Below are positions 15,319 through 46,422 of a DNA stretch of 64,000 nt, in pieces; position 1 is the stretch's first letter; each line of letters starts with the position of its first letter. The DNA comes from Eledone cirrhosa (taxonomy: Eukaryota), in assembly GCA_964016885.1 (NCBI GenBank), contig OZ024742.1:9362001-9426000 (forward strand). Reading direction: 5' to 3'. The notes below the pieces were generated by a model. That model made no database searches and had not been told where the DNA came from. It saw nothing but the letters and a program-made list of their open reading frames with translations. The position numbers and the translations under genes are program-made.

Positions 15319-17130
15319 TTAGCTGTATACTTTATGGAATGTTCTGTGGAATGTATACAAGCAGAGAGAAAACAAGTCAGTGCGTCTATTTATTATAGGA
15401 TCTAAATTAGATATAATGGTAAATTTCTCACATAAACATAGATTACATGTCTTGGATAGAGAACCATTCAAGTATGGAGAAGCAGAACAAACCTTCTTCC
15501 AAGAGATGTTATAGTTAATATTTTTCTCTTTAAAGGACCATATGAATTCTGAGAGTGCCGTGTTGGTTCTTTTAAGTTGCTATTTAAAAGACGAATGATG
15601 ATTATTAAGACGAGCTTTAAAGAAGGTGGAAGTGGAGCCAAAATAGGCAAAGGAATTGGTGTCAGTTATAACTTTACATTCGTAGATTAAGTTTTTTTCA
15701 AGACAATGGTTGTTGAGAGGGCATTTATTTTTAACAGGGCAATTACAATTGCGATTAGAGAAATTAACAGAGTTATTTACAAGTGATCTAGTGTTATCTA
15801 TAGAAGGAATTGGATTGGAGAAGTTATTTACGATAGGAATAATAGTTTCTTGATTTAGAATGGGATTAAGAACATTTATCGAAGTTGCGTTTGACGTCGT
15901 ATTTGAGTTTTCAGAATCTAGCCTAGAGTTAACAATGGCGTCGGGAGTACTATTACTATTATTATGATATTCAGTGTTGGAAGGAAGAGATTTAGTATTT
16001 AGTATTTTATTGTTGTGTTTATAGATAATGTTGGACATGTTGGAGGAGGTCGAATAGGAAAATTTTATAGTGTGTTTGTTAAATATTTTTCTATAGATAT
16101 GTGAGGGAGGGAAGCATTTATTTAAGGCACTAAAGAATAATTTAGGAATATTATTATTAATAGAGATGGAGAAAGGAGCATTATACCAGATTATGTTTTT
16201 GTATCTAGGTCTTTTATTAAAGTTATTGGAATGATCATGATTAATTATTCTACTGTAAGATCTTCTAGATTTTGTTTCTTTTCTATATTTGATTTCATCA
16301 GGACAACCGGCTTTAGAAAGCGCGTTATTACAGTAATTGGCGTTAGCATCAAATATGTTTTTATTAGATGATAGGTTGGATATTCTTTTTCCAACATTAC
16401 TAACTATAGCATTCTTAATATTAGTGGGGTGGTTAGATTTAAAATTAACATAATTTAGGTTCTCATTGTTTTTATGGTAAGGGCAATATAGGCCAGTGTC
16501 AAGATTAAGAGATACATCCAAGAAATTATCTAGTTTGATGCTGTTATCAAATTCAATGTTTAAGTTATGATGGTTAAAAAGATTACGTATATTGTTCTTA
16601 ATAATATTAAGGTTAACTTTGTTGCAATTTAAGATAGTAAAGAGTCCATCGTCACGATAAATTCCACCGCGAAGTTGAGGAATTTTCCGCTTCAAAGATT
16701 TCAAAATAAAGATACCAATTAAATCTGTCAATTGGGATGAATCGGATGCTCCCATTAAGATGTCAAAGTTGTTAGAGGTATCGGTTCTGGTCCAATATTC
16801 ATTGTTGAACTCTAGGATGGTTTTACGTGCGGTGAAAATGATGTGAAGTTCATCTGTGGTGATGTCTGAATATTTGTAAGCGAAAGATAGAGCATTGTTG
16901 AGAAGTGATGGCGAAATAGAAGAATAGTAGCTGGCAATATCAAATTGAATACAATTTTGTTTGTTTTTCTTATTCAATTTGTTGAACCAGCCAATCACTT
17001 CAGAAGTACCAAACCATACATTTAAGTTCAAAGAAGAGCAATTAGAACGAACCTGTGGGATAATTCTATCCAAGATGGCTTTGCTAACAACCCGCAGATC
17101 TGATTTAGAGGGGCGATTAGTCTAACAGGT
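15319..17130 (-). pseudogene. Penelope-like reverse transcriptase + GIY-YIG endonuclease, 5'-truncated, with an internal stop at 15580
   Basis: QFDIASYYSSI, MGASDSSQLTDLIG, YRDD, FLDVSLNL, SNHP, CNCPVKNKCPL (CxCx5C linker), LIYEC...YFGST...FKARLNNH. Reading continues past the TAG as TALSEFIW...CNLCLCEK...INRRTDLFSLC. Confidence 0.9.
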
Positions 17131-24551: not shown

Positions 24552-25215
24552 CTTTGAGTCTCAGTCATTGATGTTATTTAAGTGGAAAGTTTGTTGAAAT
24601 GAATATCAAGCCGTTACCTGCAGCCTAAAATATTCAGGACGTATCGGAGGGTTCTTGCTGTTCCCAGCAAGCATGCCTTTTGAAGTGTTCCAAAAAGCGG
24701 GGCTGGATTAATTTTCTTTAATCATTCTTGGAAACTTTTTGAGATAGTACCTAGTGCGCCTATGACAATCGGGACGACTCTGACTTCATGGCTGTTCCAA
24801 ATCCTTTTAACCTCCCACTTTATGTCCTGGTATCGGTTAATTTTATCCCTCTCCTTCTCTTGCACTCTCGTGTTGAATGGGCAGGCCACATCCACAATCA
24901 GGCATGATCTTTTTTCCTTGTCCAAAACCACCAGGTCAGGTCTATTGTGTTCCAGTTTCTTGTCCGTCTGTATCCTAAAATCCCATAGCACCTTCACCTG
25001 ATCGTTTTCTATCACCGACTCATACCACTTCTCAGAGTGCGGTAAATTGTTTACTTTGCATAGGTCCCAGTGGATCACCCTGCCCATCACATCATGTCTC
25101 CAGCCTTTATAGTGAGTCTGAGTTAGGAGTTTACACTCGGATACAATGTGAGCCACAGTCTCCTCTCTCTCCACATATCCTACACAGTGGGCTAGTCTCC
25201 TCCTTGTAAATATGG
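24552..25215 (-). mobile_element. 3' fragment of an RLE-type (R4/Dong-like) non-LTR retrotransposon with (TAA)n tail
   Basis: Minus strand: SPLCRICGE/EETVAHIVSEC (CCHC, frameshifted), RHD, WDFRIQTD..NRPDLVVLD...IVDVACP...KERDK..RY (PD-(D/E)xK nuclease), PIVIGALG, LQKACLLGTARTLR, a short 3' UTR, then (TAA)n. Confidence 0.85.
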
Positions 25216-28200
25216 CAAGACATGGGAACCCCGAATGTGAAACCCACACCGTGACTTTTAAAAGGGTTCCCCCCAAAAAAAACCACCAACCATGGAGGTC
25301 GAACCACCCGACCTTCAAGACCCCGGGAGGTAAGTAAACCTTCCCTTTCTCTCTTAGCTTACCAACATGGCCATATTAAGAGTAGGAAGTTTAAATGTTC
25401 GCGCCCTGGGGTCACCCTGGAAGCAGGGTCGCCTTCTCAACGACCTCAGGTCGCTGGAAATGGATGTGATTGCCGTAAGCGAGACCAGAATTTCCGACAC
25501 GTGCACACTAGTCACCATTTGCGACGACTATCAGATCTTCGCATCTGTTAGCAGGCCGGGAATAGGGGGGGGGGGGGGTGGCAGTGCTGTTTAGGAAAGG
25601 ACTGGATCTCGAGGTAAAGTCGATCTTCCGGGACCCGGACGGTAAGTTGGTGGTCTTGGATGTGAGCAGTAGCGAAGTTGGTGCCTTTAGACTGCTGGCC
25701 GTCTACGCCTCTTCAGGGGCCGGACGACCGGAATACTTTAGGCGCCTGGAGACCTTCTGGGTACGTCTCGCCCTTTACTGTTAGCGGGGGACCGGAATGA
25801 CATTTTAGACGCACGCTAGGATTGTGTGGGAGTAGCCGATAGGAGCGTGGGGTGCAAAAGCCTCAAGCACCTACTCAGCCAGTTCCAACCGTCTGACAGG
25901 TATCGACTAGATTTCCCCAATATGCCAGTATGGACATGGACCAACCAAATGGGGTCATCTAGATCGTATATAGACAGGATCTTCATTAGGAAAATAGATA
26001 GAAATAGTGTAGGCTACTCACTTTTTAAAACGGTCGCCTATTCAGATCACACATTTGTGATCTGTACGGTGGACCTAGATAAAACGCGTAGGTTAGGACC
26101 GGGTTACTGGAAGCTGAACATTTCATTTCCGGCACGTAAGACTTACACGGACCGAGTCAACAATTTAGTTAAGCAAAAGTTGACAGGGGGGATCATCAAC
26201 AACAGATGGTGGGGGGCTCTCAAAAGAGAGATTAGAGTAACTTCCATAGAGTTCAGCAAAGAACTAGCGTTAGAGAAAAATAGAAAGGAAGGGGAGCTGG
26301 TAGATAGTTTAGACGAGGCTATTTGTAGTGGCATTGCAACTATTTCTTCAATGCGAAACACGAAGGTTGCATTGTCAGAGCTAAGGCGCGTGCGCTGAGA
26401 AATGAGAGAACCAAAGCTGTTCGATGGGCCCGCGTGGCGGAGACGCAGCGTGGTAATAAAACCATAATTCGGTCGTTAGCGAACCGAGACGGACACGAGA
26501 TAAGCGATTCCAAGCGGATGTATGAGGCCTTTCACCAGCACATTGCTCGGTTGTTCGGAGAGAGTGGCGGGTCAGAGAGAATAGAGGATTTCACTCCCTA
26601 TCTTGGCGGCTTGCCGCGCATCTCGACGGTCGACGCTGAGCGCTGCGAAAGGCCGATTACTTCAGCCGAAATTCAGGACGCCCTTGTCGGCTGCATCAGG
26701 CGCAAGTCCCCCTGTTTGGTTGGCCAGCCCTATGAGCTTTACATAAATATGCCAGACTTGTTCTCCGATCTCCTCGAAGCACTCTACTGCAACTGGAAGT
26801 AGAATGGGAGTATTCCCAGTTCTGTGAGCAGGGGAGTGGTGACGCTGATAAGGAAAGACGAGAACAAGAGGGATACATTAGACAACTTCAGGCCCATAAC
26901 TCTGCTCAACACACAGTTTAAGATTTTGGCCAAGGTGTTAGCAAAGAGATTGGCGCTTGTCGTCGAGGATTTGGTTGGGGAGGCGTAAACTTGGGCAATC
27001 CCAACCAGGTCCATACACGACAATCTCCACCTAATGCGATACATCATAGAGAGGGTAGGGTGTAAACCTGGCTTCGGTGGGGCACTGATCAATTTAGATC
27101 AATCGAAAGCATTCGATAGGGTCGACCATCGGTATCTGGAGTTTGTCCTCAAAGCAGCTGGCTTCAGCCCTGTCTTTAGAAGCTGGATCGTTGCAATGCA
27201 CAGCGGCACACGCTCGGTGGTCAAGGTTAATGGCCACCTCTCAGAAGAATTTCGGCTCTCCCGATTGGTCCGTCAAGGGTGCCTCTCTCTTCCTTTCTGT
27301 ACGTATTGACTCTCGAGCCTTTACTGCGGAAGCTGGAGCTGTTGCAGGGAATCTCCCTCGAACCGGGACGTGGAAAGGCGGTGTCGGCTTATGCGGACGA
27401 CATCACCGTGATGGTGTCGAACACCTCAGAAATCGAGGTGGTCGGCACCTTATTGAAAGAAAATGAAAGGTTGTCAGGAGCCAAACTTAACCCGGAAAAG
27501 TCGGTGGGCTTGCAGCTCGGAACCTGGAGAGGCAAGCCCATGCCGTCCAAGAGCGTCGTGGGACGCTTGACGGACGGACCAGTAGAGTTGCTTGGAGTTT
27601 GGTTCGGACCAGACCTCCAGGTGGAAAAGAATTGGGACGAGGTAACGAGCAGAGTAGCCAGTCTCACCCAAAAATGGGCTGGGAGGAAGGTATTACTGAA
27701 AGGTCGCGCGGAGGTGGCGAATGCTTACATCGCGTCCGTCATCTACTACCGCCTGACCGTCGTGCCTTGCCCCCGTCCGTGCCTCGTCAAGTTGGAACGG
27801 CTCCTCTTCAAATTCTTGTGGAGGGGACAAGATCCGTTGGTGAGGCGGTCCATCTGCTGCCAGCACCCTCTACGCGGAGTGCTGGGCATGCCGTGGCTAA
27901 TGATGCGCAGACATGCGTTGAGGCTGCGACATCTCCAGATATTCTGCCTCAACGGTGAACAGGTGTGGTCGCCGTTTATCAGACGGGCCTTTCCGCACCT
28001 CATTTCTTTGACTGAGCTGCAGTCCTGGGTCAAGAAGAGACCGAGACTGGGGGGACTGGCACCTGGAATGTTGCCAGGCACTCACTGCCCTCCACCAAGC
28101 AGGCAATGCGATCAGTGAAACTTCCACTCTCGAGTTCTATAGAGGATTAGTGGTGGGAAGTGCGATGAGGCACTCGGAGAAGCTTTGGGCCTCGACGAAG

Positions 28201-29013
28201 TCGAACTGACCAGTCTCTACCGGAGGACTTTCGAGCCGGGGACGATAGACAATTTCCAGAAATCCCTCGCGTGGCAGTGTTACCGTCGGGCACTGCTGGT
28301 TCGGGATAAACTCTACAGGCACGGAAGTGCTTTCAGACGGACCTGCCCAAGATGCGCACAGAAAGACGAAACCGTTCTGCACGCAATTGTCCAATGTCCG
28401 TGCATTACTGACTTGTGGAGTTATGTTGAATAATTACTGTCGCGTGTGGAACGAATCCGGCTATCGGCCGAGTCCATAATGAAGATCGACCCGCCGCCTT
28501 CCTTAGGTCAGGAAGAGCAGGAAATTTTCCTCTGTCTGGTGGCAGTTGCGAAAGAGGTTATATGGTGGACCAGGTAAAAAGGACTGAAGAGGCAAGTGCT
28601 GCCTTCTAGCAAGTTTGTTGAAAGGTGGGTGAATGTAGCGAGAATGGTCCGAGTTAACGGGACCGCTCTGAATATACGTCTGCTGTTTGAGAGATGGAAA
28701 AATCGAGAGAAGGCGCTTGCCCTAGTAGTCAGGGTGGCCGTGGTCTTTTGTGTGGTTTTCGCCACGAGTAACCCTCGGAGGTCCCCCCCCCCGCCCTTTG
28801 GGGAATTTTTCATTGTTTCAATTTTCATTTTTATTGTTTATATATATATGTTTCTATGTTCTTTTTTTTCTTTTCTTATATAAATAATAAAAATATTTAC
28901 AGGCACAAAACCTACATCGTACCGTCCTGTACCGTCCTTTGCCGTCTCTAATGTTTTTCTTGATGTCAGCCCTTGTGGCCAATAAAGAAATCATTATTAT
29001 TATTATTATTATT
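25216..29013 (+). mobile_element. L1/Tx1-like LINE copy A (5'-truncated, chimeric 3' end)
   Basis: 25216-25357 matches the ORF1 end of copy C. Disrupted ORF2 follows, ending aataaagaaatc(att)n at 28981-29013. Confidence 0.9.
25367..28690 (+). pseudogene. Copy A ORF2 (APE endonuclease-RT-CCHC), multiple frameshifts and stops
   Basis: SLNVRAL, SET, YIDRIF, YSDH, LDQSKAFDRVDH, VRQGC, AYADD, CPRCAQKDETVLHAIVQC. Confidence 0.9.
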
Positions 29014-29218
29014 GTTGGTGAAGCCATGCTTCTTATCGCCTCCAGTCTTTTTCAACGTTTTACCTCTTTTTCAACCGTTCTAAACCTTTTATTCAAGTTT
29101 TAAATTTGATAAAAGTTTAGAAGAAGTGACCCACCTAATAGTAAATAACACGGCACCCCTTTACGGGGTGTCGTATTCGCATTTGTGTAAACATTTTTTT
29201 TTTTTTTTAAATTTCAAC

Positions 29219-30745
29219 ATGGATAACACAAAGAGAGAGGGCGCTGTCAGACAACACAGAGAGGGGGAGACTTTATCAGCATGTCAACAAGACAGCGTTC
29301 CAGCGGAGGTAAATACAAACGAAAATATTACAAAGGAAAAAAAGATTGTTACAGATTTAAAATTAACAAATATTTCTAACACAAACAACACCAACAATAA
29401 CACCAACAACATCACCAACAACAACACCAAAAATAACAGCGGTAAAGTCGAGAACGACAATAACAAAAATAACAGCGGTAAGGTCGAGAACGATAATAAC
29501 AATGACAATAACAACAGCCACAACAACAATAATAGTAGGAACAGTATCAACAAAAACAACAATAATAACAACAGCCACAATAACAGTAACAGCAGCAACA
29601 GTATCAACGAAAGCAACACCAACAACTGTACTAGCGAAAAGAACAACAATGACACCGATACCTGTAATTGCGACCTCAGCACCACCAGTAAGACCAGTAG
29701 CGGCAGCAATAGTGGTGCTGCTGAAAAAGGGACCACTTCTTTTGCAGGTGTCGCCCGAAATATCGAGACAGTGTTAGTCACAGAGGAGGAGATGGCAGTC
29801 GCAAGGGCCATGGTGACAAGAAGCGCAAATAGAGATTCCCTGAAACCACCACCCGATTTGTTCAAGGACCAGCAGCTACGAACGGTGACTTACCGCACCG
29901 TAAGCAAAATCTCACATCGAGTGGAGAGAGCCACAGAGACTCAAATCCAAAAGGCCTTGGGGTGCGTCTGGGCACGGAAAACCCACATCACACGAGGCAG
30001 AAAGTACGCCACAGTAGACGTACTTTTCGCTATCCCCCAGGAAGCAAAGTCTCACTCTTTGGAAACCCTAAAGAGTGAGGAGTTAGTCTTGGTGCCCTCC
30101 TACTGCGGGCAGAAAATTGTGAAGGTCAAAGTGACCCAGGTCCCACCCGACGTGCCCATACCTTGGCTGGCCGCGTCTGTCCTTGCTGGAATTGAGAACA
30201 GGGCGACCCTGCTGCAAGTGGAAAAAATAGGGAGAGAGAACTGGTCAGGTATAGGCATGCAAATGCTTATACAAACTGACCAGGAATGTATCGAAACTAT
30301 CCCCGATATCATAGACTTTGAGGAAGGACTCCAACTCCCTATAAGTGTAGAAGGACGACGGCCAAAATGTTATCTCTGTGGGTCGAAAGGTCACTTCAGG
30401 GCCTTTTGCTCGCAGAAGACACCGAAGAGGGCCCCTCTCCTTCCAATACATAGTCCGCTGCTACCAAGAGCAGGACAGGCAACAAACGAAGAAGCCCCTT
30501 CCACGGTGAGTAGGAGGGTAACGTCCGTAGCACCCGTACCAAGGCCATGGATAACTAAAGCAGCAGCTTCAGTAGCGGTAACACCAATAGCTACATTTGA
30601 AATAGCTACACCAGCAACAAAATTGCCGAAGAGGGCTCCACTACCACCACCAACAGCCGTGGAGCAAATACCCCTCCCAGACGCCACAGAATCCGACATG
30701 GAGTTTGAGGCGGGAATGACGTGGCAAACAGTCTGCCACAAATAA
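29219..30745 (+). CDS. Copy B ORF1, gag-like with CCHC knuckle; originally extended to ~31115
   Basis: Asn-rich N-terminus, SFAGVA, RPKCYLCGSKGHFRAFC (CX2CX4HX4C) and a Pro/Thr-rich tail; homologous to copy D ORF1. Confidence 0.8.
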   Translation: MDNTKREGAVRQHREGETLSACQQDSVPAEVNTNENITKEKKIVTDLKLTNISNTNNTNNNTNNITNNNTKNNSGKVENDNNKNNSGKVENDNNNDNNNSHNNNNSRNSINKNNNNNNSHNNSNSSNSINESNTNNCTSEKNNNDTDTCNCDLSTTSKTSSGSNSGAAEKGTTSFAGVARNIETVLVTEEEMAVARAMVTRSANRDSLKPPPDLFKDQQLRTVTYRTVSKISHRVERATETQIQKALGCVWARKTHITRGRKYATVDVLFAIPQEAKSHSLETLKSEELVLVPSYCGQKIVKVKVTQVPPDVPIPWLAASVLAGIENRATLLQVEKIGRENWSGIGMQMLIQTDQECIETIPDIIDFEEGLQLPISVEGRRPKCYLCGSKGHFRAFCSQKTPKRAPLLPIHSPLLPRAGQATNEEAPSTVSRRVTSVAPVPRPWITKAAASVAVTPIATFEIATPATKLPKRAPLPPPTAVEQIPLPDATESDMEFEAGMTWQTVCHK

Positions 30746-31150
30746 AAAAATAATAAAAAACCCTTAGATTCACCCTTCAAAAGCGAAGGCATACAAAGAT
30801 GGGTAAAGGCAGCAAGGAAACTTGCAGCAACACCATCACAAACACCAACAACGCAAACACAACAATACACACTCACCAAACAGCAACAAGAAGATAACGG
30901 CAACAAAATCACCCCTCCCCCCAAAAAGTACACAGCCATAAACATAGCAAAAAAAGAACTCATAAAATATATAAAGCAGCACACAGACATCACGGAAAAA
31001 AATTACTACACCCCACCAACACCAAGAACTCTCCCGACAAACATAAGCATCATCGAAATCTCAATAGAACAATACAAACCTTCAATACAAAAATTTCCCA
31101 CACGAACAAGGTAAGTGACCCTTTCTCATTTGCCCCATTTCTCATCCAAC

Positions 31151-34100
31151 ATGGCTGTACTCAGAATAGGCAGTATAAATGCAGGTGGCCTGGGGGTCAT
31201 CTTGGAAGCAGGGTCACCTGCTCAATGACCTCAGGTCACTAAACATAGATGTGGTGGCCATCAGTGAAACCAGAATCTCCGAGGCACGGGCCTTCGCACC
31301 GTACCTCGGCGGCTACGATGTATACGCATCTCCCAGCGGTCCAGGATCGGGGGGAAGGGGTGACGTCCTTTTTCGGAGAGGCTTGGATCTCGCGATACCA
31401 TCTTCCTGGACCCAGAAGGTAAGTCGGTGATGCTGGACGTGACTGGCATCGAAGGCAATGCTTTCAGGCTAGTAGCCGTCTACGCCCCAACGGGGGCAGG
31501 ACGGCCAGATTTTTTCAGACGTCTAGAGACCTTTCTTGGAACGTCCCGCTCTTTAGTGTTAGTGGGCGACTGGAACGGTATCTTGGATGCACGCTGGGAT
31601 CGTGTGGGGCTAGTAGATAGGGGAGGAGGGTACAAGAGCCTCACCGACCTGCTCAGACGCTTTAAACTGTCTGACAGGTATCGACTGGATCACCAGAATG
31701 TGCCAATGTGGACATGGACAAACAGCGTCGGGTCATCCAGATCGTATCTAGATAGGGTATTCTGCAGGGAACTAGATAAGGCTAGTAAAAGTTGTCCACA
31801 ATTTAAAATAGTCGACTACACAGACCACACATTTGTGATCTGTGAGATCGACATAGACAGACTTCATAGACAAGGGCCTGGTTACTGGAACCTGAACGCG
31901 TCTTTCCCGGCGCACAAGGTTTACAGAGACCGGATAAGCGTATTAGTTAAGCGGGCGTTGACGGGAGCGGTCGTCAATAACAGGTGGTGGTTCGCCCTTA
32001 AAAGGGCAATTAAAGTAGAGTCGATTAGGTTTAGCAAAGGAGTAGTGATAGAGGAAAATAGAGTAGAGGGCGAGCTAGTCAGAAAGCTAGAAGAGGCGTT
32101 TAGGACAGGCATCGCAACCGACGTGCTTGCGGCGAGATTGGCGCTCGACCAATTCTTCAACGCAAAACACGAAGGCTGCGTTGTCAGAGCTAGAACGCGT
32201 GCTCTGAAACACGAGGGGACAAAAGCCGTCTAATTGGCCCGGGTGGCAGAGGCGCGACGTGGCAACAAGTCCACAATTCGGTCTTTGCCTGATCAAAACG
32301 GGCGCATGTTGCTCGAACCCGAGCAGATGTGTGCGGCTTTTCAGCAGCACTTTGCTGAACTGTTCGGGAGCGGCGGCGGCCCGGATCGGGACATGGACTT
32401 CAGTGCATACCTCGACGGACTTCCTCGGCTCTCGACTACCGCAGCACAGTGTTGCGAAAAGCCATATAACAGCCGGTTAAATACGGGAAGCGATGGCTAA
32501 CTGCACAAGAGGTAAATCGCCAGGTTTCGTTGGTCTGCCCTACGAGCTTTTTGCATTTATGCCAGACTTGTTCGGTGACCTCTTGGCAGACGTCTACTGC
32601 AACTGGCAGCAGAACGGGAGCATTCCCAGTTTTGTGAGCCGGAGAGCAGTGGCGCTGCTGAGAAAAGACCCGAACAAGGGGGATGTTATTGATAATTTCA
32701 GGCCCATAACCCTGCTAAACGCAGAGTTCAAGATTTTGGCCAAGATGTTAGCAACGAGGTTGGCGCTTGTTGTCAAGGGTCTGGTTGGAGAGGCGCAGAC
32801 ATGCGCCATCCCGGACAGATCCATACACGACAACCTCCACCTCATGCGATACATCATAGAGAGGGTGGTTAAGGAACCTGGCAAAGGTGTGCCCTGATCA
32901 ACTCGGATCAATCCAAAGCATTCGATAGGGTCGACCATCGGTACCTGGCGGCGGTCTTCGAGGCAGCCGGTTTCGGGCCCGTTTTCATGCGTTGGATCGC
33001 AGCAATGTACAGTGACATCTGGTCAGTTGTGAGGGTGAACAGTCACCTGTCGCAGCCGTTCAGCATCATGCGCTCAGTCCGCCATGTTTGTCCCCTCTCG
33101 TCCCTCTTGTACGTATTGGCTCTCGAGCCGTTACTGCACAAACTGAGGGCGATGAGGGGCGTCCCACGCGAACTAGGATGCGGGAAATCCGAGTCGGCTT
33201 ACGCTGACGACGTCACCGTGGTGGTGGCGAGCACCAGACACATCCAGATGCTCGGCACCGCTCTCAAGGAATACGAAGCGGTGACAGGAGCAAAGATAAA
33301 CCAGGAAAAGTCGGTGGGCTTGCAGCTAGGCACCTGGAGAGGCAAGTCCATGCCGTCCGACAGCGTCGTGGGGCGTTAGACGGACGGACCGGTTAAATTG
33401 CTCGGGGTCTGGTTCGGAGCGGACCTCGAGATGGAGAAAATCTGGAACGAGGTGACGAGCAGGGTGGCTTCTCTCACCCAGAAATGGGCTGAGAGGAAGC
33501 TATCGCTGAAAGGCCGGGCGGAAGTGGCGAATGCGTACATCGCATCCGTCATCTGCTACCGCCTCACCGTCGTCCCTTGCTCCAGCCGAATTCTCACCAA
33601 AATGGAGCGCCTCCTCTTCCGCTTTTTGTGGAAGGGACGCGCTCCCATGGTCAGACGATCCATCTACTGTCAACACCCGTTGCGTGGAGGACTTGGCATG
33701 CCATGGCTGATGATGCGCAAACATGCTTGAGGCTGCGACATCTCTGGTGCTTCCTTGCTGGTGAACGGGTGTGGTGGCCGTTCGCCAGGCACATTTTCCC
33801 ACAGCTCGTCTCCTTGACGGAGTTGCAGTCCTGGGTCAGAAAAAGTCCGAGGGTAGCGCTTGGAAACTGGAATGTCTCCAGGCGCTCACTGCCATCTCCC
33901 AGTTGGGCACCACTATCGGTGGAACATCCACCTCGGCGTTCTATAGAGGACTAGTGGAGGGGAAGAGCGACGACGTTCTCGAAGAGATCCTGGGCGTCGA
34001 AGAAGATCAGCTGCGTGCTCTCTTCCGGAGAACTTTCAGCCCGGGGCCTATGTATAACTTCCAAAGATCCCTGGCCTGGCTGTGATACCGGGGAGCGCTG

Positions 34101-34545
34101 CCGGTTCGAGATAAGCTCTACAGGCATGGAAGTGCCGTCAGCCGAGCCTGACCTAGATGCGCGCATAGCGACGAAACCGTTGTGCACGCACTCGTTCAGT
34201 GCCCGAGCATTGCTGACTTGTGGAGCTATGTCGAACAGTTTCTGTCACGTGTGGGACTGATCCGGTTGTCGACTGAGTCCATTGTGCAGATGGTCTCGCC
34301 GTCTTCCTTTGAGGAGGAAGGGCAGGTGGTTTTCATCTGCCTGGTGGCCATGGCGAAAGAGATTGTGTGGTGGACAAGGTTAAAAGGATTAAAGACAAAC
34401 ACTTTCCTCTTCGCGAATCCCTGATTAACTTTTTCAAGTTTCACTTGAAGAGGAAAATCAGGGTGGAGAGGCAAGTGCTGCTTTCTAGCAAGTTTGTTGA
34501 AAGGTGGGTGAATGTAGCGAGAATGGTCTGAATATACGTCTGTAG
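31151..34545 (+). pseudogene. Copy B ORF2 (APE-RT-CCHC), disrupted
   Basis: MAVLRIGSINA, AVYAP, GDWN, YLDRVF, TDH, RPITLLN, AYADD; many frameshifts and stops. Confidence 0.9.
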
Positions 34546-34831
34546 TTTGAGAGATGGAAAAATTGTGAGAGGGCGCTTGCCCTGGTAGTCAGGGTGGCCG
34601 TGGTCTTTTATGTGGTTTTCGCCACGAGTAACCCTCGGAGGTTTCCCCCCTATTGGGGAATTTTTCATTGTTTCAATTTTCATTTTATTGTTTATATATA
34701 TATATGTTTTATGTCTTTTTTCTTTTCTTATATAAATAATAAAAATATTTACACGCACAAAACCCACATCGTCCGTCCTGTTCCGTCTGTGATGTTTTTC
34801 TTGATGTCAGCCCTTGTGGCCAATAAAGAAA

Positions 34832-34868
<37 letters not shown>

Positions 34869-35094
34869 GGCCGCACATGTGTGAAGACAGACAAGTCTGC
34901 GGGGAAAAAGGTTCGTAGCTTTAAGCTGTTTTAAAGTATCTTTTTTTGTATTTTCTTGTCATTAACGAAACTTAAGGTACACATCTTGATTTAAAGAGAA
35001 GGATACCTCTCAATATTCGGCCTTTAAGCCCGAATATTCAGATTTATTTTTTAAAAACTTCGAAAAAAATCGCTTCCCCACCCACCAAAAAATT

Positions 35095-37045
35095 ATGGAA
35101 ATTTTCGACCTTGAAACGGTAAACAACGTTCAGGTCAAAAGTTTAAAGGCAGCCACTGTAGATTTCACCACGACTACGACGGCTACAGTCATGCCTGTCA
35201 TCCACTCTACTGAATGTTAAGGCAAAACTAAAAAGCTACCATCACAACCTTCTGCCATAGCAGCAGTATCATCTGAAAACGACATCACCACCACCGCCAC
35301 CACCAACCACAACAACAACACAGAGCAATAACGACAATAACTCCGACAGCTTCAATGTAAATAAGGATGGCGGTGTCAACAGCAAGAATGACAACAACAA
35401 CAATAAGAGCATCAGAAACACCACATTTGCTGCAGCAGCAGCAAAAACAAAGCGCTTATTGAATATTGATATTGATATTAGCGATAAAGACGAACAGTTG
35501 GCCAAAGCGTGGAGGCTAATTAAACGGGAGAAGTCTTGGGCAAACCTGACCATCCCGGACGAGGCAATAGCGGCCATGCAAAGGAGGACGGTGCTCTTTC
35601 GATGTATTTCGGTGCAGACACGAAAAGTGGAACTTGCGAGCCAAGCAGAGGTAGAGGCTGCTTTGGAGTACATCGGAAGTAACATAGAGTACAAAGCAAG
35701 AGGCAAACAGTTCGGTACCATCTCGGTACTGTTCAAAACCGAGGCCCTCTCTATTAAGCACTCGGTGACCCCCTGCAGAACGGAACGCATTATCATGAAT
35801 CCGTCCTATATGGGTAAAAGGACAGTGAAGGTACGCATTCCCAGCATCCCACCAGGAATGAACATAGGGTGGCTGTTGGGATGCGTAATCGAGGAGGGGA
35901 CAGACACCACCCTCCTGGACATCAAAAGGACAGAGAGAGAGGACTGGTCCGGAATGGATTTGGAGATTCTTCTCCAAATGAAACTGGAGGATATGAATAA
36001 CATCCCAGATTTTGCCCGCCTGCAGGACGGGACAACAGTCCAACTAATGATTGACGGAAGAAGGCCACGTTGCTTCGTTTGCGGGGAAGCAACGCATCTT
36101 CAAGCCTTCTGCCCTCAGCGGAAAAATGCAGGGGGTCGCAAACCTCCTTTGTTGCCAACGCCAATGTCAGCACGGAAAGCTGCACCACCACCACCACCAA
36201 AAACAGCATCAACAAAAACACGGACACCAACATCAAAAGCTGCCGGATCACCACCAACACCAAAACCAATCCAAGGAGAAAACGAGGAAAGCTCTCCCAC
36301 TCCCCCTACCCCCCCCCCCCAATTATACACATAGACAAAAAAAATAATAAACGCACACACAGACACAGAGACACTCACAGACACAGACCCTTTGTCTTCC
36401 AGCAGCGAAGATGAAGGAAAACCCAAAAGTGCAGAAAAACAGAGAAAACTCACAAAAAAAAAGCCCCAACAAAACACAAAAACGCACACAACAAAAAATA
36501 CAGACACCACTAACGCAAACACTTCCCCAATAACATCAGCACCATCAGCAACATCGACACCACCTCCAAAATCCCCGAAACGCAAACAACCTAAACAAAC
36601 ACAAGTACAAATAAACACACAAATACCTGAAATTGCAGATACCACACCTACAACAAACATAGACATACCCGAAACAACACCACCAAAACCATCGCCACCA
36701 CCTTCACCAAAACGAAAACAAATAAAACCACACCAACAAAATGTTAAAAACTTCGTGCTAGTCAGAAGGGCCAACGATAAACTGATGGCCCTCTTAGCGC
36801 GAAGCGAGGACATTCAAACAGAGGGGGAGATTTTTGAAATGAGCACATTTTGCGTGCCAGAAGATTTGCTTCTGGTCCGAATGTCACTCAATTCCTTCAA
36901 AGAAATTCGAGAGAGCTTTCCTCAAGACGTGGGAAACCCGAATGAGAAACCCACATCAAGACTTTTAAAGGGTTTCCCAAAAGAAACTCCACCCGACATT
37001 CACAAGACCCGGGAGGTAAGTAAACCTTCCCTCTCTCTCTCTTAG
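35095..37045 (+). pseudogene. Copy C ORF1, gag-like with CCHC knuckle, disrupted
   Basis: Track ORFs 35459-36334 and 36392-37045; RPRCFVCGEATHLQAFC; Pro/Thr-rich region. Confidence 0.8.
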
Positions 37046-37054
37046 TTTACCAAT

Positions 37055-40000
37055 ATGGACATATTAAGAGTAGGAAGTTTAAATGTTCGCGGCCTGGGGT
37101 CACCCTGGAAGCAGGGTCGCCTGCTCAACGACCTCCGGTCGCTGGAAATGGATGTGATTGCCGTAAGCGAGACCAGAATTTCCGACACGCGCGCACTAGC
37201 CCCCATTTTCGACGACTATCAGATCTTCGCATCTGTTAGCAGGCCGGGAATGGGGGTGGGGTGGCAATACTGTTTAGGAAAGGACTGGATCTCGAGGTAA
37301 GGTCGATCTTCCAGGACCCGGACGGTAAGTTGGTGGTCTTGGATGTGAGCAGTAGCAAAGGTGGTGCCTTTAGACTGCTGGCCGTCTACGCCCCTACAGG
37401 GGCTGGACAACCTGACTTCTTTAGGCGCCAGGAGACCTTTCTGGGTACGTCTCGCCCTTTATTGTTAGCGGGGGACTGGAATGGCATCTTAGATGCACGC
37501 TGGGATTGTGTGGGAGTAGCCGATAGGAGCGGGGGGTGCAAAAGCCTCAAGCACCTACTCAGCCAGTTCCAACTGTCTGACAGGTATCGACTAGATTTCC
37601 CCAATGTGCCAGTATGGACATGGACCAACCGAATGGGGTCATCTAGATCGTATATAGACAGAATCTTCATTAGGAAAATAGATAGAAATAATGTGGGCTG
37701 TCCACTTTTTAAAACGGTCGCCTATTCAGATCACAAATTTGTGATCTTTACGGTCGACCTAAATAAAACGCGTAGGTTAGGACCGGGTTACTGGAAGCTG
37801 AACATGTCATTTCCGGCACGTAAGGCTTACAGGGACCGAGTCAACAAGTTAGTTAAGCAAAAGTTGACAGGGGGGATCATCAACAACAGATGGTGGGGGG
37901 CTCTCAAAAGAGAGATTAGAGTAACTTCCATAGAGTTCAGCAAAGAACTAGCGGTAGGGGGCTGGTAGATAAGTTAGACGAGGCTATTTGTAGTGGCATC
38001 GCAACTGACGTGCTTGCGGCGAGAATGGCATTAGACCATTTCTTCAATGCCAAACACGAAGGTTGCATTGTCAGAGCTAAGGCTCGTGGGCTGAGAAACG
38101 AGGGACCTAAAGCTGTTCGATGGGCCCGCGTGGCGGAGGCGCAGCGTGGTAATAAAACCACAATTCGGTCTTTGGCGGACTGAGACGGACACGAGATAAG
38201 CGATTCCAAGCGGATGTGTGAGGCCTTTCGCCAGCACTTTGCTCGGTTGTTCAGGGAGAGTGGCGAGTCAGAGAGAGTAGCGGATTTCAGTCCCTACCTT
38301 GACGGCTTGGTGCGCATCTCGACGATCGACGCTGAGCGCTGCGAAAGGCCGATTACTTCAGCCGAAATTCAGGACGCCCTTATCGGCTGCATGAGACGCA
38401 AGTCACCCGGTTTGGATGGCCTGCCCTATGAGCTTTACGTAAATATGCCAGACTTGTTCTCCGAACTCCTCGAAGCACTCTACTGTAACTGGCAGCAGAA
38501 TGGGAGTATTCCCAGTTCTGTGAGCAGGGGAGTGGTGACGCTGATAAGGAAAGACGAGAACAAGAGGGATACATTAGACAACTTCAGGCCCATAACTCTG
38601 CTCAACACAGAGTTTAAAATTTTGGCCAAGGAGTTAGCAAAGAGATTGGCGCTTGTCATCGAGGATTTGGTTGGGGAGGCGTAAACATTCGCAATCCCAG
38701 CCAGGTCCATACACGACAATCTCCACCTCATGCGATACATCATAGAGAGGGTAGGGTGCAATCCTGGCTTCGGTGGGGCACTGATCAATTTAGATCAATC
38801 GAAAGCATTCGATAGGGTCGACCATCGGTATCTGGAGTTTGTCCTCAAAGCAGCTGGCTTCGGCCCTGTCTTTAGAAGCTGGATCGTTGCAATGCACAGC
38901 GGCACACGCTCGGTGGTCAAGGTTAATGGCCACCTCTCGGAAGCATTTCGGCTCTCCCGATCTGTCCGTCAAAGGTGCCCTCTCTCTTCCCTTCTGTACG
39001 TATTGACTCTCGAGCCTTTACTGCGGAAGCTGGAGCTGTTGCAGGGTATCCCGCTCGAACCGGGACGTGGAAAGGCGGTGTCGGCTTATGCGGACGACAT
39101 CACCGTGATTGTGTCGAACACCTCAGAAATCGAGGTGGTCGGCACCTTATTGAAGGAATATGAAAGGTTGACAGGAGCCAAACTTAACCCGGAAAAGTCG
39201 GTGGGCTTGCAGCTCGGAACCTGGAGAGGCAAGCCCATGCCGTCCAAGAGCGTCGTGGGACGCTGGACGGACGGACCAGTAGAGTTGCTTGGAGTTTGGT
39301 TCGGACCAGACCTCCAGGTGGAAAAGAATTGGGACGAGGTAACGAGCAGAGTAGCCAGTCTCACCCAAAAATGGGTTGGGAGGAAGCTATCACTGAAAGG
39401 TCGCGCGGAGGTGGCGAATGCGTACATCGCGTCCGTCATCTACTACCCGCTAACCGTCGTGCCTTGCCCCCATCCGCGCCTCGTCAAGTTGGAACGGCTC
39501 CTCTTCAAATTCTTGTGGAGAGGACAAGTTCCGTTGTTGAGGCGGTCCATCTGCTGCCAGCACCCTCTACGCGGAGGGCTGGGCATGCCGTGGCTAATGA
39601 TGCGCAGACATGCGTTGAGGCTGCGACATCTCCAGATATTCTGCCTCAATCGTGAACAGGTGTGGTCGCCGTTTATCAGACGGGCCTTTCCGCACCTCAT
39701 TTCTTTGACTGAGCTGCAGTCCTGGGTCAAGAAGAGACCGAGACTGGGTGACTGGCACCTGGACTGTTGCCAGGCACTCACTGCCCTCTACCAAGCGGGC
39801 AATGCGATCAGTGGAAATTCCACACTCGAGTTCTATAGAGGATTAGTGGTGGGCAAGTGCGATGACGCACTCGGAGAAGCTTTGGGCCTCGACGAAGTCG
39901 AACTGACCAGTCTGTACCGGAGGACCTTTGAGCCGGGGACGATGGACAATTTCCAGAAATCCCTCGCTTGGCAGTGCTACCGGGGGGCACTGCCGGTTCG

Positions 40001-40457
40001 GGATAAACTCTCCAGGCACGGAAGTGCTGTCAGACGGACCTGCCCAAGATGCGCACAGAAAGACGAAACCGTTCTGCACGCAATTGTCCAATGTCCGTGC
40101 ATTACTGACTTGTGGATTTATGTCGAACAGCTACTGTCGCGTGTGGAACGAATCCGGCTATCAGCCGAGTCCATAGTGAAGATCGAGCCGCCACCTTCCT
40201 TAGGTCAGGAAGAGCAGGATATTTTCCTCTGTCTGGTGGCAGTTGCGAAAGAGATTATATGGTGTACCAGGTTGAAATGACTAAAGACAGACACTTTTCT
40301 CCTCGGCCAATCCCTCATCAACTTCTTCAAGTTTCACCTGGAAAGGAGGGTGAGGGTGGAGAGAGAAGTGCTTCCCCCCAGTACATTTGCTAAAAGGTGG
40401 GTGAATGTGGCGAGAATGGGTCGTGTGAATGGGCCTACTCTGACCATGCGCCTATAG
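37055..40457 (+). pseudogene. Copy C ORF2 (APE-RT-CCHC), disrupted
   Basis: SLNVRGL, GDWN, YSDH, KSPGLDGL, LDQSKAFDRVDH, AYADD, CPRC..H..C; longest intact piece is 38730-40280. Confidence 0.9.
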
Positions 40458-40630
40458 GCTGGCTAACTTGAGGAGAGGGGTGCTGTCCTGGGTGCCCTAG
40501 AAGCGCAGGGTGGTTCAGGATTGGTGGGGTACCCCAATCACCCCAGGTGCCTGTTATTTGGCCCTTCGGGGTTAAATAACTGCTTATTGGGATTTTGTAC
40601 CCAATATTTATTTTAAACAAAAAAAAGAAC

Positions 40631-42737
40631 ATGGCTACGAAAAAGAAATTTCATAGGTCACTCCCACTCATTCCGTCTTCTTCTTTCTCAATCATCACTA
40701 CAGCAGAGAGAAGATTGTCTCTCTCCCTCCCTTCTTTAAATGTGTCTCTCTCCCTCCCTTCTCTTTCCCAAGCGACGAAAGAAAAGAAAAGTCTCGTGCA
40801 AAGCGTGCAAGGTTTCTCCACGACGACGACGACAGCGACGAAACAGGTGTGCGGGAAATACGAAAACCCAGTTCATTCGTCTGACGTCAGGAATAATAGC
40901 AGTAGCAGCCGTAATAACAACAGCAACAGTGACAATGAAAACAACAGTAGCAGCCGCAACAGCATCACCAGCAGCATAAACAACAACAGCATTAGCAGCA
41001 GCAAAACCAACAACAACCACAGCAACAGCGGCGGAGGCAGTAGTCGTAGTACCTGCAGCAACAACAAAAGTACCAGCATCTCTGACGACAACAACAACAA
41101 CAGCAGCAAAGAAAAACCAATCTCATTTGCAGGTATTGCGAAAAACTTGGAAACAATCTTCATAACAAATGAGGAATTAGAGGAAGCGAAGAAGATGGTG
41201 ACAAAGAATGGACACCGAGCAATCTGCAAGGCAGCGGAAACATTTTTCGAAACCCAACAGCACTGTACGGTCACGTACCGTACAGTAAGTACAAAATCCC
41301 GTAGGGTGGAAAGAGCCACAGAGGCTCAGAAACAAAAAGCCTTGGGGTCTGTGTGGCAGCGGAAAACGCACATCACCCGAGGCAAAAAATATGCCACCGT
41401 AGACGTACTTTTTGCCACACCCCAGGAGGCAAAGGCCCAATCCGTAGTGACCCTAAGGAGGGAGGAAATGGTGTTGGTGCCCTCCTACTGCGGGCAAAAA
41501 ATTGTGAGGGTCAAACTGACCCACGTCCCCCCCCCCCCCGGAATGGCCCCTTCTTAGCTGGCCGCGTCTGTCCTCGTCGGAATCGAGGACAAAACAACTG
41601 TACTGCAAGTACAGAAAAAAGTAAGAGAAGATTGGGTCGGCACCTCCATTGAGATGCTAATCCAAACCAACCAGGAGTGCATCGAAGCTATCCCGGATGT
41701 GATAGACTTCGATAACGGCACTCAACTGCCCATATGTGTTGAGGGAAAACGCCCGAAATGCTTTCGCTGTGCATCGAAGACTCACCTCAGGGCCTTCTGC
41801 AACGAGAAGACCCTGAGAAAGGAGAAAACCCCCCTCCTTCCAAAACCGGCTCCACGGCTACCAGCAACAGGACAAGCGGCAAACAGGAACGATAGGTCCG
41901 TGGCACCCATATCCACGCCACGGAAATCAAAAACAGCAGCAGCAGTGGAAATATTAACAACAACAACAGCAATACCAAATGCAGCTGCAACAGAGACTCC
42001 AGTGCAAACATCACCAACAACAACAAGTGAAAGAGTGGAGCTGGTACCCCTCCCTGACCTCACAGAATCAGACATGGAGTGTGAGGTGGGAGAGGGATGG
42101 CAAAAGGTCGTAAGAAGGCACAAACGCAGAAACAGCGCATCGTCGCCTTTGAAAAGGGAGGAAAGAAATGAGAAAAGGGTAAAGTCTACTGCAAAGAGAC
42201 CCACAGCAGCAACACCACCAACACCATCACCGCCCACACCAGCACCACCATCACCACCGGCGACAACCCTACCACCAACAACACCTTAAACACCACCACC
42301 ACAAGCACCAACATCGCAAACACAACAACAAAACACACACACCCAGTAACAACGACAAGAAAATAGCAGAACCACACCCCACCCCCAGAAAAACAAATGC
42401 AAGGCAATAAATACACACAACAAGAAACTAATTACTTACATAATTGAACACAGACATTTCACAACACGACTACATAATACCAGCACCAATCAAAACGCCA
42501 ACTAACATAAGACTGCTAAAAATAGCACAGAAACAATACACAAACATTAAAACGAAATTCCCCAACGCAGTTGGTGATTTCAGGGACCTAGGAGGAACTA
42601 TCAATCGAAAAGTATATTCAGACATTCTCTTAGAAGAGCCGACGACCAGCCGAAGGGACGATTCAACGGTCCCTTCACCAGACGATCAAGTGAAAAGAGA
42701 TGTAAAAACCATCCCTCCTCTATCAAAAGTACGGTAA
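40631..42737 (+). pseudogene. Copy D ORF1, gag-like with CCHC knuckle, interrupted by stops/frameshift
   Basis: Ser/Asn-rich N-terminus, SFAGIA, RKTHITRGKKYATVDVLFA (nearly identical in B), RPKCFRCASKTHLRAFC. Confidence 0.85.
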
Positions 42738-42772
42738 GTGGTCTTTCCCATCTTTTCCACTCTATTTTAAAC

Positions 42773-45700
42773 ATGACCTCACTCAGAATAGGCAGCGTAA
42801 ATGCGCGTGGCTTGGGGTCGTCATGGAAGCAGGGTCACCTGCTCAACGACCTCAGGTCACTAAACATAGATGTAGTGGCCATCAGCGAGACCAGAATCTC
42901 CGAAGCACGGGCCTTCGCACCGATCTTCGGCGTCTACGATGTGTACGCATCTCCCAGCCGTCCTGGATCGGGAGGAGGAGTTGCTGTGCTTTTTCGGAGA
43001 GGTTTGGATCTCGCCATACGGGCCATCTTCCTGGACCCAGAGGGTAAGCTGGTGGTGCTGGACGTGACCAGCGGAGACGGGCAAGCTTTCAGGCTAGTGG
43101 CCGTCTATGCCCCGACAGGAGCAGGGCGGCCTGATTTCTTCCGGCGTCTGGAGACCTTTCTTGGAACGTCCCGCTCTTTAGTGTTAGTGGGCGACTGGAA
43201 CGGGATCTTAGATGCACGCTGGGACTGTGTGGGATTACCGGATAGGGGTGGAGGGTGCAAGAGCCTCACCAACCTGCTCAGGCGTTTTGAAATGTCTGAC
43301 AGGTACCGATTGCATTTCCCGAATGTGCCAATGTGGACAAATCGTATAGGGTCATCCAGATCATATCTAGATAGAGTATTTTGTAGGGAAATAGATAGGT
43401 CTAGCATAGGCTGTCCACAATTCAAGATAGTCAGCTACACGGACCACAAATTCGTGATCTGTGTGCTTGACTTAGATAGGCTTCATAGACGAGGACCCGG
43501 CTACTGGAAGCTAAACGCGTCCTTACCAGCGCGCAAGGCCTACAGAGACCGGATTAGAGAACTAGTTAAGCGGGCGTTGACGGGGGCCATCGTCAACAAC
43601 AAGTGGTGGTTTGCTCTGAAAAGAGCGATTAGAATAGAATCGATTACGTAAGGCTTTAGCAATAGAGAAAAATAGAGCAGAGGGAGAACTAGTTAGAAAA
43701 TTAGACGAGGCGCTTAGCAAAGGCATTGCGACCGACGTGCTTGCGGCGAAATTGGCCCTTGACCAATTCTTCAATGCAAAGCACGAAGGTACCAATAGGC
43801 CCGAGTGGCGGAGGCGCGTCGTGGCAACAAATCCACGATCCGGTCTTTGGTGGACCACGACGGGCGCATGCTACTCGATCCCGGGCAAATGTGTGAAGCT
43901 TTTCAGCGACACTTCGCTCAGCTGTTCGGGGGCAGCGGTGGGCCGGGTCGAGGGATGGACTTTAGTGTCTACCTCGACGGACTGCCGCGGCTCTCGCCCA
44001 CTGAGGCGAAGTGTTGCGAAAAGCCGATAACAGCCGCTAAATTACGGGAGGCAATGACTAGCTGCACAAGGGGTAAATCGCCTGGTTTGGATGGTCTGCC
44101 CTATGAACTTTACGTACAGATGCCAGACTTGTTCGGAGGCCTCTTGGCGGACGTCTACTGCAACTGGCAACAGAACGGGAGAATTCCCAGTTCTGTGAGC
44201 CGAGGAGCGGTGGAACTTCTGAGAAAGGATCCGAACAAGGGGGATAACATAGATAATTTCCAGCCCATAACTCTGCTAAACACAGAGTTCAAGATTTTGG
44301 CCAAGGTGCTAGCAAAGAGGTTGGCGCTTGTCGTTGGTGGTCTGGTGGGAGAGGCGCAGACATGCGCCATTCCCGACAGATCCATCCACGACAACCTCCA
44401 CCTCATGCGATACATCGTAGAGAGGGTAGCTAAGGAACCTGGCACGGGTGGGTCCTTGATCAATTTAGATCAGTCGAAAGCTTTCGATAGGGTCGACCAT
44501 CGTTACCTAGCGGCAGTCCTGAGGGCGGCTGGCTTTGGGCCCGTCTTCAGAGGCTGGATCGCTGCCATGCACAGCGACATCTGCTCTGTGGTGAGAGTGA
44601 ACGGTCACCTTTCGGAACCGTTCAACATCATGCGCTCGGTCCGCCAAGGATGTCCCCTCTCGTCCCTCTTGTATGTATTGACTCTCGAGCCATTACTGCA
44701 CAAACTGGAGACGTTGAGGGGAGTCCCGTGCGAACTAGGATGCGGAAGATCCGTGTCAGCATATGCGGACGATGTCACCGTAGTGGTGTCGAACGCCAAA
44801 CACATCGAGGCGATCGGCACTACACTAAGAGAATACGAAGCGGTGACAGGAGCAATGATCAACCAGGAAAAGTCAGTGGGCCTGCAGCTCGGCACCTGGA
44901 GAGGCAGGTCCATGCCGTCCAACAGCGTCGTCAGACACTGGACGGACGGACCGGTTAAATTGCTAGGGGTCTGGTTCGGTCCGGACCTCCAGACAGACAA
45001 AAACTGGGACGAGGTGACGAGCAGGGTGGCTTCTCTCACCCAGAAATGGGCGGAGAGAAAGCTATCCCTGAAAGGTCGAGTGGAGGTGGCTAACGCGTAC
45101 ATTGCGCCTGTCATCTGCTACCGCCTGACCGTCGTACCTTGTCCTAAGCCTCGCCTGACTGCGCTGGAGCGTTTGCTCTTTCGCTTTTTGTGGAAGGGAC
45201 GCGCTCCGATGGTCAGGCGGTCCATCTGTTGTCAACACCCGCTACATGGAGGGCTGGGCATGCCGTGGCTGATGATGCGCAGGCACGCGCTCAGGCTACG
45301 ACATCTCCACCTCTTCCTCGACGGTGATCAGGTGTGGTCGCCGTTTGCTAGACACGTATTTCCCCAGCTCGTTTCCTTGACGGAGCTGCAGTCCTGGGTC
45401 AAGCGAAGACCGAGAGGGAGCGCCTGTAGACTGGAATGTCTTCAGGCGCTCACAGCCCTCGACCAATCGGGCAATGTGATCGGTGGAAACTCCACCTCGG
45501 CGTTCTATAGAGGATTAGTGGAGGGGAAGAGCGACGACGTACTTGGGGAAACTCTAGGCTTCGACGAAAATCAACTAGCCAATCTCTTCGGAAGAACTTT
45601 CGGGCCAGGGCCTATGGACAACTTCCAGAAATCCCTGGACTGGCAGTGCTACCGAGGAGCCTTGCCAGTTCGGGATAAACTCTACAGGCATGGAGGTTCA

Positions 45701-46129
45701 GTCAGCCGGGCATGTCCGAGATGCGCGCAGGGCAACGAAACCGTCCTGCACGCACTCGTCCAGTGTCCGAAAATTGCTGACTTGTGGGTTTATGTAGAAC
45801 ACCTGCTGTCGCGTGTAGGACGGATCCGGCTATCATCTGAGTCCATCGTGAGGATTGCCCCGCCCTCCTCCTTTAGCCAGGAAGGGCAGGCAGTTTTTAT
45901 CTGTCTGGTGGCCATGGCGAAAGAGATAGTATGGTGGACACGTTTGAAAGGGCTGAAGACGAGCACTTACCTCTTCGGTGATGCTCTGATTGACTTTTTC
46001 AAATTTCATTTGAAAAGGAAAATCAGAGTAGAGAGGGAAGTGCTCTCTTCCCAGCATTTTGTTGAAAGATGGGTGAGAGAAGCAAGAATGGCTCGAGTGA
46101 ATGGGCCTACTCTGAGTATATATCTGTAA
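42773..46129 (+). pseudogene. Copy D ORF2 (APE 42773-43651; RT-CCHC 43805-46129), split by small deletions
   Basis: GSVNARGL, SET, GDWN, YLDRVF, TDH; KSPGLDGLPYE, QPITLLN, LDQSKAFDRVDH, VRQGCPLS, AYADD, CPRCAQGNETVLHALVQC. Confidence 0.92.
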
Positions 46130-46366
46130 ATTAAAGGTGGAAAACTGGGAGAGGGCACTTGCCTTGGTGGTCAGGGTCATTGTGGCTTTTTACTGGGCTT
46201 TCTCCACAAATGTCCCTCCGAAGTCTCCCCCTATTGGGGAATTTTTCATTGTTATTTTTTGTTACATCCTCTGTTTTTGTTTTTTACACGCAGAAATGCC
46301 CATTTGTATTGTCCTGCACTGTCCTTAATGTCTACTTCATGTAAACCCTTGTGGTTAATAAAGAAA

Positions 46367-46422
<56 letters not shown>

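Follow-up and report, generated by a model that had tools for sequence, protein, structure and literature searches.

A conserved candidate U1-type splice donor at the end of ORF1 in LINEs of Eledone cirrhosa and its possible role in skipping ORF2

Four long interspersed elements (LINEs; A to D in the following) lie on the same strand at positions 25216-46422 of the analyzed 64-kb stretch of Eledone cirrhosa DNA (contig OZ024742.1; termed the window), and each carries the sequence G/GTAAGT at the end of its first open reading frame (ORF1; the slash marks the putative splice position). As noted in the original prediction, the motif is present at 25330, 31111, 37016, and 42734, is followed by a pyrimidine tract, and precedes the ORF2 start codon by 37, 40, 39, and 39 nucleotides (nt), respectively. 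The window and copies and arrays fetched from the rest of this 3.0-Gb animal genome were compared, and we consider it likely from the sequences that the motif is a real signal under selection, most likely a donor of the U1 type. As the best single mechanism, to which we give an even chance, splicing from this donor to the end of ORF2 would skip ORF2 and yield an ORF1-only mRNA. We hold a wider reading more tentatively, at somewhat below even chance: the whole ORF2 would be an intron reaching from the last ORF1 codon to the ORF2 stop, with stops that track the phase of the donor, and the same donor would swap ORF1 modules and would have founded the hybrid family D1 with its more than 1200 copies. 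The four donor-like sites are:

25327..25335, + strand: GAG/GTAAGT of element A; the family ORF1 of this subtype ends with GGT AAG TAA (phase 1); ORF2 ATG at 25367

31108..31118, + strand: AAG/GTAAGT of element B; the family ORF1 ends with GGT AAG TGA (phase 1); predicted pairing with spacer positions +16 to +24

37013..37045, + strand: GAG/GTAAGT of element C; phase 0; ORF1 continues through the tract to the TAG at 37043-37045; ORF2 ATG at 37055

42731..42739, + strand: ACG/GTAAGT of element D; phase 2; the ORF1 stop codon TAA lies inside the motif

The reading frames of ORF1 were fixed from genome copies of each family. The D ORF1 (698 amino acids, aa) ends with CGG TAA; 13 of 29 scored copies are open over 400 codons in this frame and none in the other two. 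The ORF1 of the B family comprises 668 aa up to its GGT AAG TGA terminus. Four LINEs with differing subfamilies had been described at the outset. Since A and C belong to one family (92% over 3.4 kb), the window contains three lineages rather than four, all of which carry the motif. The TTAG 9 nt upstream of the ORF2 ATG in A and C is present. The arrangement reported for C, with ORF1 and ORF2 in frame and separated by a single TAG, applies to the C subtype with a 39-nt spacing (C39), whose ORF1 passes through the motif to this TAG, but not to other copies of the C family, which have spacings of 35-41 nt and other frames. Beyond the types seen in the window, the subfamilies D2, X, E, C37, F, H, and I and a C-like one were found. 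For D1 (the hybrid family of element D), D2, F, H, and I, the donor phase is 2, for B, X, E, and C37 it is 1, and for C39 it is 0. Conservation across related families was confirmed within this genome, where ten subfamilies, down to 68% ORF2 identity, retain the motif across all three ORF1 reading phases. H and I (68% ORF2 aa identity to D) were retrieved with a C-terminal protein query. These young families (L432-L443) have intact ORFs and end in TATC/TA-type repeats, not in (ATT)n, which is a target-site change within the lineage. In family F (L273-L297), ORF2 is of the D type (97% nt identity), but the ORF1 end differs and the spacer comprises 52-54 nt; here, too, an ORF1 module was exchanged.

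A donor-like motif was carried by 29 of 30 ORF2 starts chosen regardless of the donor (27 with GTAAGT), by 14 of 17 ORF2 starts in two fetched regions, and by all 11 full-length ORF2 copies of two distant families obtained with the C-terminal protein query. Without gaps, six lineages share invariant positions −2, −1, +1 to +4, and +6, and just four other positions between −40 and +34 are invariant. Four-fold degenerate sites are invariant in 37 of 121 cases in seven lineages and in 54 of 136 cases in the three window lineages (0.31-0.40); pairwise, this invariance amounts to 0.43-0.57 between the main clades. From the silent-site values, the neutral probability is approximately 0.0008 for six invariant sites in seven lineages and 0.005 for five sites including H and I, an estimate (~0.001-0.005) that ignores the partial constraint from stop and amino acid codons. 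Between the B/D clade and the C/E clade, the flanks of the motif cannot be aligned. On the intron side, two variants occur at the family level: F has GTAATT in 21 of 25 copies, and the one copy seen of I has GTAGGT. Both have a perfect CAG on the exon side, which is what U1 pairing leads one to expect, and they remain U1-compatible. The donor signal is not clade-wide, since GGTAAG was absent from the 80 nt before ORF2 in 36 distant L1/Tx1 metagenome loci (the 36 of 74 that reach the ORF2 start; 23-35% identity), a set that does not include the 39-45% relatives P0002-P0012. One distant locus (L146) has G/GTGAGT at the ORF1 stop, as read by eye.

The candidate acceptors lie at the ORF2 stop codon or, in the D lineage, downstream of it:

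34543..34550, + strand: candidate acceptor in B at the TAG that ends ORF2; TGA would follow one codon after a phase-1 join

40455..40466, + strand: ORF2 stop TAG/G of C, candidate acceptor; a phase-0 join would stop after two codons

46262..46293, + strand: CAG with a U-rich tract, the candidate acceptor in the D lineage; the ORF2 stop is TAA, and the join would stop after 20 codons

The YAG sites that had been noted in the 3′ untranslated regions (UTRs) at 28969, 34810, and 46293 exist. The ORF1-only RNA proposed along with them fits best among the three proposed mechanisms, but not with these acceptors: the B-type site is located 11 nt before AATAAA and its join yields no stop codon, so that 28969 and 34810 would leave a non-stop message in B, and 46293 suits only D. 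Family E has no AG within the last 150 nt. The ORF2 stop, in contrast, provides a candidate AG acceptor (mostly TAG/G; CAG at this position in C37) in seven of the ten subfamilies, i.e., B, X, C37, C39, E, H, and I. If the donor is joined to the base after this AG in linked copies, a stop in the phase of the respective donor follows within one or two codons in B (3/3), C39 (2/2), C37 (1/1), E plus a C/E-like subtype (4/4), I (1/1), H (4/6), and X (4/4 correctly placed ends out of 6 rows). The offset of this stop from the AG is 1 nt in the phase-2 families H and I, 2 or 5 nt in the phase-1 families, and 6 nt in the phase-0 C39; in H-a and I, the join rebuilds the same Arg-stop. The background frequency of a stop within two codons is 0.032 (41,580 position-phase pairs in 3′ UTRs). 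With the local null set cautiously at ~0.2, the value for three independent clades is roughly 0.01. In D1, D2, and F, the ORF2 stop is TAA, and the U-rich tract with CAG lies 73 nt before AATAAA (46293), where B has CAC. In total, a candidate acceptor with a prompt stop is placed at the ORF2 stop in seven of ten subfamilies, with one H subtype failing, and is relocated in D1, D2, and F. Element A carries a mutated copy of the ORF2-stop AG.

A hairpin is predicted over the donor in several lineages. In B and X, donor positions −1 to +8 pair with +16 to +24 (predicted p 0.99; z −2.7 in B and −3.4 in X), and in C, E, and the C-like family −5 to +2 are predicted to pair with +9 to +15 (z −0.9 to −4.3). 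For lineage G, a z of −4.3 was predicted. The hairpin is not significant in D1, D2, and F, and the z-values of D1, D2, F, E, C37, and C39 amount to no more than about −1. A single conserved hairpin shared by all lineages was rejected, because the pairing registers differ between them. The spacers of B and X (31111-31134; L298-L327) contain a 9-nt near-complement of their own donor, and subfamily changes in it keep the predicted pairing; this segment presumably resembles the 5′ end of U1. According to these models, masking of the donor by a hairpin with the pyrimidine tract could limit splicing.

From these features, we propose the following course as the best explanation. Part of the element RNA would be spliced, with the motif at the ORF1 end as donor and an AG located at the ORF2 stop or shortly behind it as acceptor, the D lineage using the downstream U-rich CAG (46293) instead, and removal of ORF2 would give an ORF1-only mRNA with a normal 3′ end. 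The predicted hairpin would mask the donor, so that most RNA would remain full length. The short RNA may supply the excess of ORF1p over ORF2p, a task that falls to the spliced gag RNA in copia. The hybrid family D1 may have been founded when read-through RNA was occasionally spliced into a neighboring tandem copy. The junction of this family in element D is:

42684..42698, + strand: hybrid junction 42690/42691; the exon end of X, exactly at the X donor, joined to D2 right after CAG

In D1, a B-like exon end gives way to D2 sequence. It is 96.6% identical to D2 from −45 on and unrelated to it upstream (30/100 before the junction), whereas the matches to X amount to 89/100 before and 15/43 after the junction. 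The search for the 5′ parent X gave 82 matches, of which 30 were read; 24 of these were copies of X, all but one with GT (23), and the remaining 6 were D1 variants. Upstream, X shares 86-93% identity with D1, and downstream it resembles B. The join lies exactly at the donor of one parent and directly after the CAG of the other, and only the AG is common to both. A viable random join reaches this position of X in 0.14-1.6% of cases. Judged from this junction, the hybrid, of which at least 1203 copies exist, probably arose by splicing. A switch at a 5-nt microhomology combined with a 5-nt slip could mimic such a join, but no intermediate was present among the 30 loci read. No second donor-joined hybrid was found in the exon ends searched (30 of the 82 matches of the X search read).

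Several observations weigh against splicing. A second donor-like word persists within the ORF2 coding sequence, and codon inertia can keep such words:

31416..31424, + strand: second donor-like word, approximately 310 nt into ORF2, in Gly-Lys-Leu codons of the family; D1 and E have a weakened form, and further occurrences lie at 25642 and 37325

The ORF2-stop acceptor was chosen post hoc, after the acceptor scan had been viewed. Its tracts are weak (9-12 of 15 pyrimidines), the H-b subtype (two of six H rows) has no early stop there, and the D lineage has lost the AG and is nevertheless abundant. Early stops also occur in ~4 of 18 cells of unused phases (D phase 1, C37 phase 0, C39 phase 1, and one C/E-like subtype in phase 2), for which reason the local null may be near the 0.2 used above. 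At the D1 junction, the CAG of D2 falls short of an acceptor of normal strength, as no pyrimidine tract lies next to it; in older D2 copies this AG is variable, and 5-nt slips deleting GTAAG occur in D2 (L345, L346). Spliced genomic copies have not been found either. None of 1203 D1 exon ends continues with the pattern of the join to 46293, the join pattern of E/C37 had no match, and a search for retroposed ORF2-less copies that covered D1, E/C37, B, D2, and F, leaving aside the joins of X and C39 to the stop and those of H and I, yielded none. Every non-consensus continuation that was read (D1 8/8, B 22/22, B/X 12/12, D2 7/7, F 2/2, C/E 9/9) is a point change, a small slip, or a D1 variant. 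According to the available text of PMC5860796, human L1 prefers to act in cis, and SpIREs make up ~2% of full-length copies even in cis. Given this preference, and because an ORF1-only RNA would need ORF2p in trans, the missing ORF2-less copies are only moderate evidence against the reading. Five runs of unrecorded kind had contigs on element D. Neither a joint nor a loose end occurs at 42733 among the matches listed for them, and contigs of runs X5 and X4 cross the D donor unspliced, neither of which is evidence for or against splicing. In run X5, contig depth at 46128-46328 is ~75 times that of ORF1 (~4 times in X1).

Among the alternatives to ORF2-skipping, docking of the U1 small nuclear ribonucleoprotein (snRNP) without regular splicing is the main rival, although we regard it as rather unlikely. 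U1 would suppress premature cleavage or termination in the 6-kb intron-less RNA, and splicing would be a rare event, as in D1. In favor of this, conservation of the donor far exceeds that of any acceptor, and the searches for spliced genomic copies were negative; D1, X, E, and C have an AATAAA 280-330 nt upstream of their donor, and the same role of U1 has been described for EVD (PMC5580714, text available in part). However, AATAAA is not enriched over shuffled sequences in either half of the elements and is absent from the B ORF1, and docking leaves the phase-matched stops behind the ORF2-stop AG unexplained. Clearly less probable is an element unrelated to splicing, i.e., translation coupling or RNA structure, in which the ORF1 stop and the hairpin would favor reinitiation at ORF2, or a DNA-level factor site that resembles a donor. 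It is consistent with the position of the motif, which includes the ORF1 stop or borders on it (Arg-stop or Gly-Lys-stop) and is 25-54 nt away from the ORF2 ATG, and with the hairpins predicted in most lineages, above all B, X, and G, and the available part of PMC5860796 reports that the human L1 donor is thought to be retained for a RUNX3 site. Yet phase, spacing, and hairpin register change between the lineages and the letters from −2 to +6 do not, the z-values are only about −1 in six lineages (see above), and the hybrid junction of D1 lies exactly at the splice position.

Two further explanations can be largely dismissed. Neutral inheritance of an ancestral chance match appears very improbable: stop and amino acid codons fix part of the motif, and the 36 distant L1/Tx1 loci function without it, but the low silent-site invariance, the unalignable flanks, and the restriction of the distant families H and I to U1-compatible variants speak against mere persistence. 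The intron of 28-30 nt with fusion of ORF1 to ORF2 that the original prediction had also considered has to be abandoned, and removal of a mini-intron over the whole range of 28-54 nt is the least probable of all explanations. Joins to the TTAG of C39 and, in D, to a CTCAG at ORF2 codons 4-5 would be in frame. However, seven subfamilies (B, X, D, D2, H, I, and the C-like one) have no AG in the spacer, spacers vary between 25 and 54 nt and the phase by family, and in E, C37, and F the joins would not keep the frame. The eight D1 copies without T at +2 include none that lacks the intron; all are point mutants or carry a 1-nt deletion. Introns of 28-54 nt are also below the usual size in animals.

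The ORF2 of the window elements encodes an N-terminal apurinic endonuclease (APE), a reverse transcriptase (RT), and a C-terminal zinc finger (zf-RVT); PF03372, PF00078, and PF13966 all exceed the Pfam cut-off. The nearest solved relative of ORF2 is human L1 ORF2p (E 2e-52; R2, E 1e-21). ORF1 is separate and located upstream (627-698 aa when intact), with a CCHC knuckle visible in the sequence, for which Pfam zf-CCHC stays under the cut-off (E 0.059, one of three proteins). The elements belong to the L1 group of retrotransposons that lack long terminal repeats (non-LTR elements). Their 3′ ends consist of AATAAA and (ATT)n, and (ATT)n-flanked elements at ~6-kb spacing occur in the window and in fetched arrays elsewhere in the genome. 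Such a target preference is typical of the Tx1 clade, to which the elements probably belong; the label rests on architecture and recall, as there was no named Tx1 reference among the 53 homologues. A scan of IMG/VR found no relative. The four elements are:

25216..29013, + strand: element A, 5′-truncated LINE with C-family body (37-nt, phase-1 subtype) and B-type 3′ end from ~28590; AATAAA and (ATT)n

29014..34868, + strand: element B, full-length LINE; ORF1 from 29219 and ORF2 at 31151-34545, both broken

34869..40547, + strand: element C; ORF2 at 37055-40457; without its 3′ end, joined to D

40553..46422, + strand: element D (hybrid family D1); ORF1 at 40632-42737 and ORF2 at 42773-46129, both broken; AATAAA and (ATT)18

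In other genome copies of D1, ORF1 and ORF2 are intact (698 and 1139 aa). In element A, C-family ORF2 changes to the B-family 3′ end at 28585-28590 with ~3 nt of microhomology and loss of sequence, a chimera formed without splicing, and at 40547-40553 the 3′ UTR of C abuts the 5′ UTR of D with no (ATT)n between them, likely by deletion between tandem copies. Joins between neighbors without splicing therefore also happen here. Copy B lacks ~105 nt directly before the donor (31098-31101) relative to its family. Elsewhere in the window, a 40-bp tandem repeat (97 copies, 91% matches) extends from 5331 to 9212, and an array rich in (TGG)n, whose composite unit measures ~83 bp and whose G skew is extreme, from 57971 to 60580. 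Minus-strand fragments at 15580-16755 and 53961-56583, whose sole Pfam signal is a sub-cut-off GIY-YIG match (E 0.004), are presumably related to Penelope-type elements, and a minus-strand fragment directly upstream of A (24722-25087; no Pfam match) we take to resemble the nuclease at the C-terminus of a different type of LINE.

The general view of LINEs is that both of their proteins come from a single bicistronic RNA that is not spliced. Precedents for the proposed splicing are the spliced gag RNA of Drosophila copia and the shGAG RNA of the Arabidopsis Ty1/copia element EVD (PMC5580714, as far as its text is available). As in these elements, a conserved U1-type donor ends the structural gene, the candidate acceptors are weak, and full-length RNA would dominate; as in copia, the intron would span the enzyme gene. 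In contrast to copia and EVD, LTR elements whose single ORF encodes a polyprotein and whose RNAs are proven, the elements described here are bicistronic non-LTR LINEs known from sequence alone, with the ORF2 stop codon as candidate acceptor. By analogy, they may work like copia and EVD in subgenomic splicing but are not copia elements. With the Tx1-clade elements Kibi, (TC)n, and Koshi, (TTC)n, they share the ORF2 with APE, RT, and zf-RVT, the two ORFs, and the tandem insertion into microsatellites; they differ in the target, which is (ATT)n or, for H and I, other repeats, and the available part of PMC4494074 describes no splice signal at the ORF1 end. Human L1 splicing is described as harmful in the accessible text of PMC5860796. 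SpIREs, like the proposed D1, are retroposed products of spliced LINE RNA, but they splice within the 5′ UTR or into ORF1 and are called dead ends there, whereas D1 would join two elements, keep both ORFs, and have reached its high copy number. Retrotransposon subfamilies founded by a splice are also known from SVA_F1 (MAST2) and chimpanzee STK40-SVA (PMC6139936, in the part available); there a host exon was joined to a non-autonomous element, and here ORF1 would have been swapped between two autonomous LINEs. A literature search gave no description of a donor at the ORF1 end of Tx1/L1 elements, although subscription papers, Repbase notes, or supplements may hold one; in the available text of PMC13282606, the word "splice" does not occur.

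The present analysis adds two features, stops that follow the ORF2 stop codon in the phase of the donor and a predicted masking of the donor by a hairpin. The model predicts exact junctions. If it is true, a non-LTR element would have a copia-like way to set the ratio of ORF1p to ORF2p, and read-through splicing in tandem arrays would be a concrete route for the replacement of ORF1 between LINE families.

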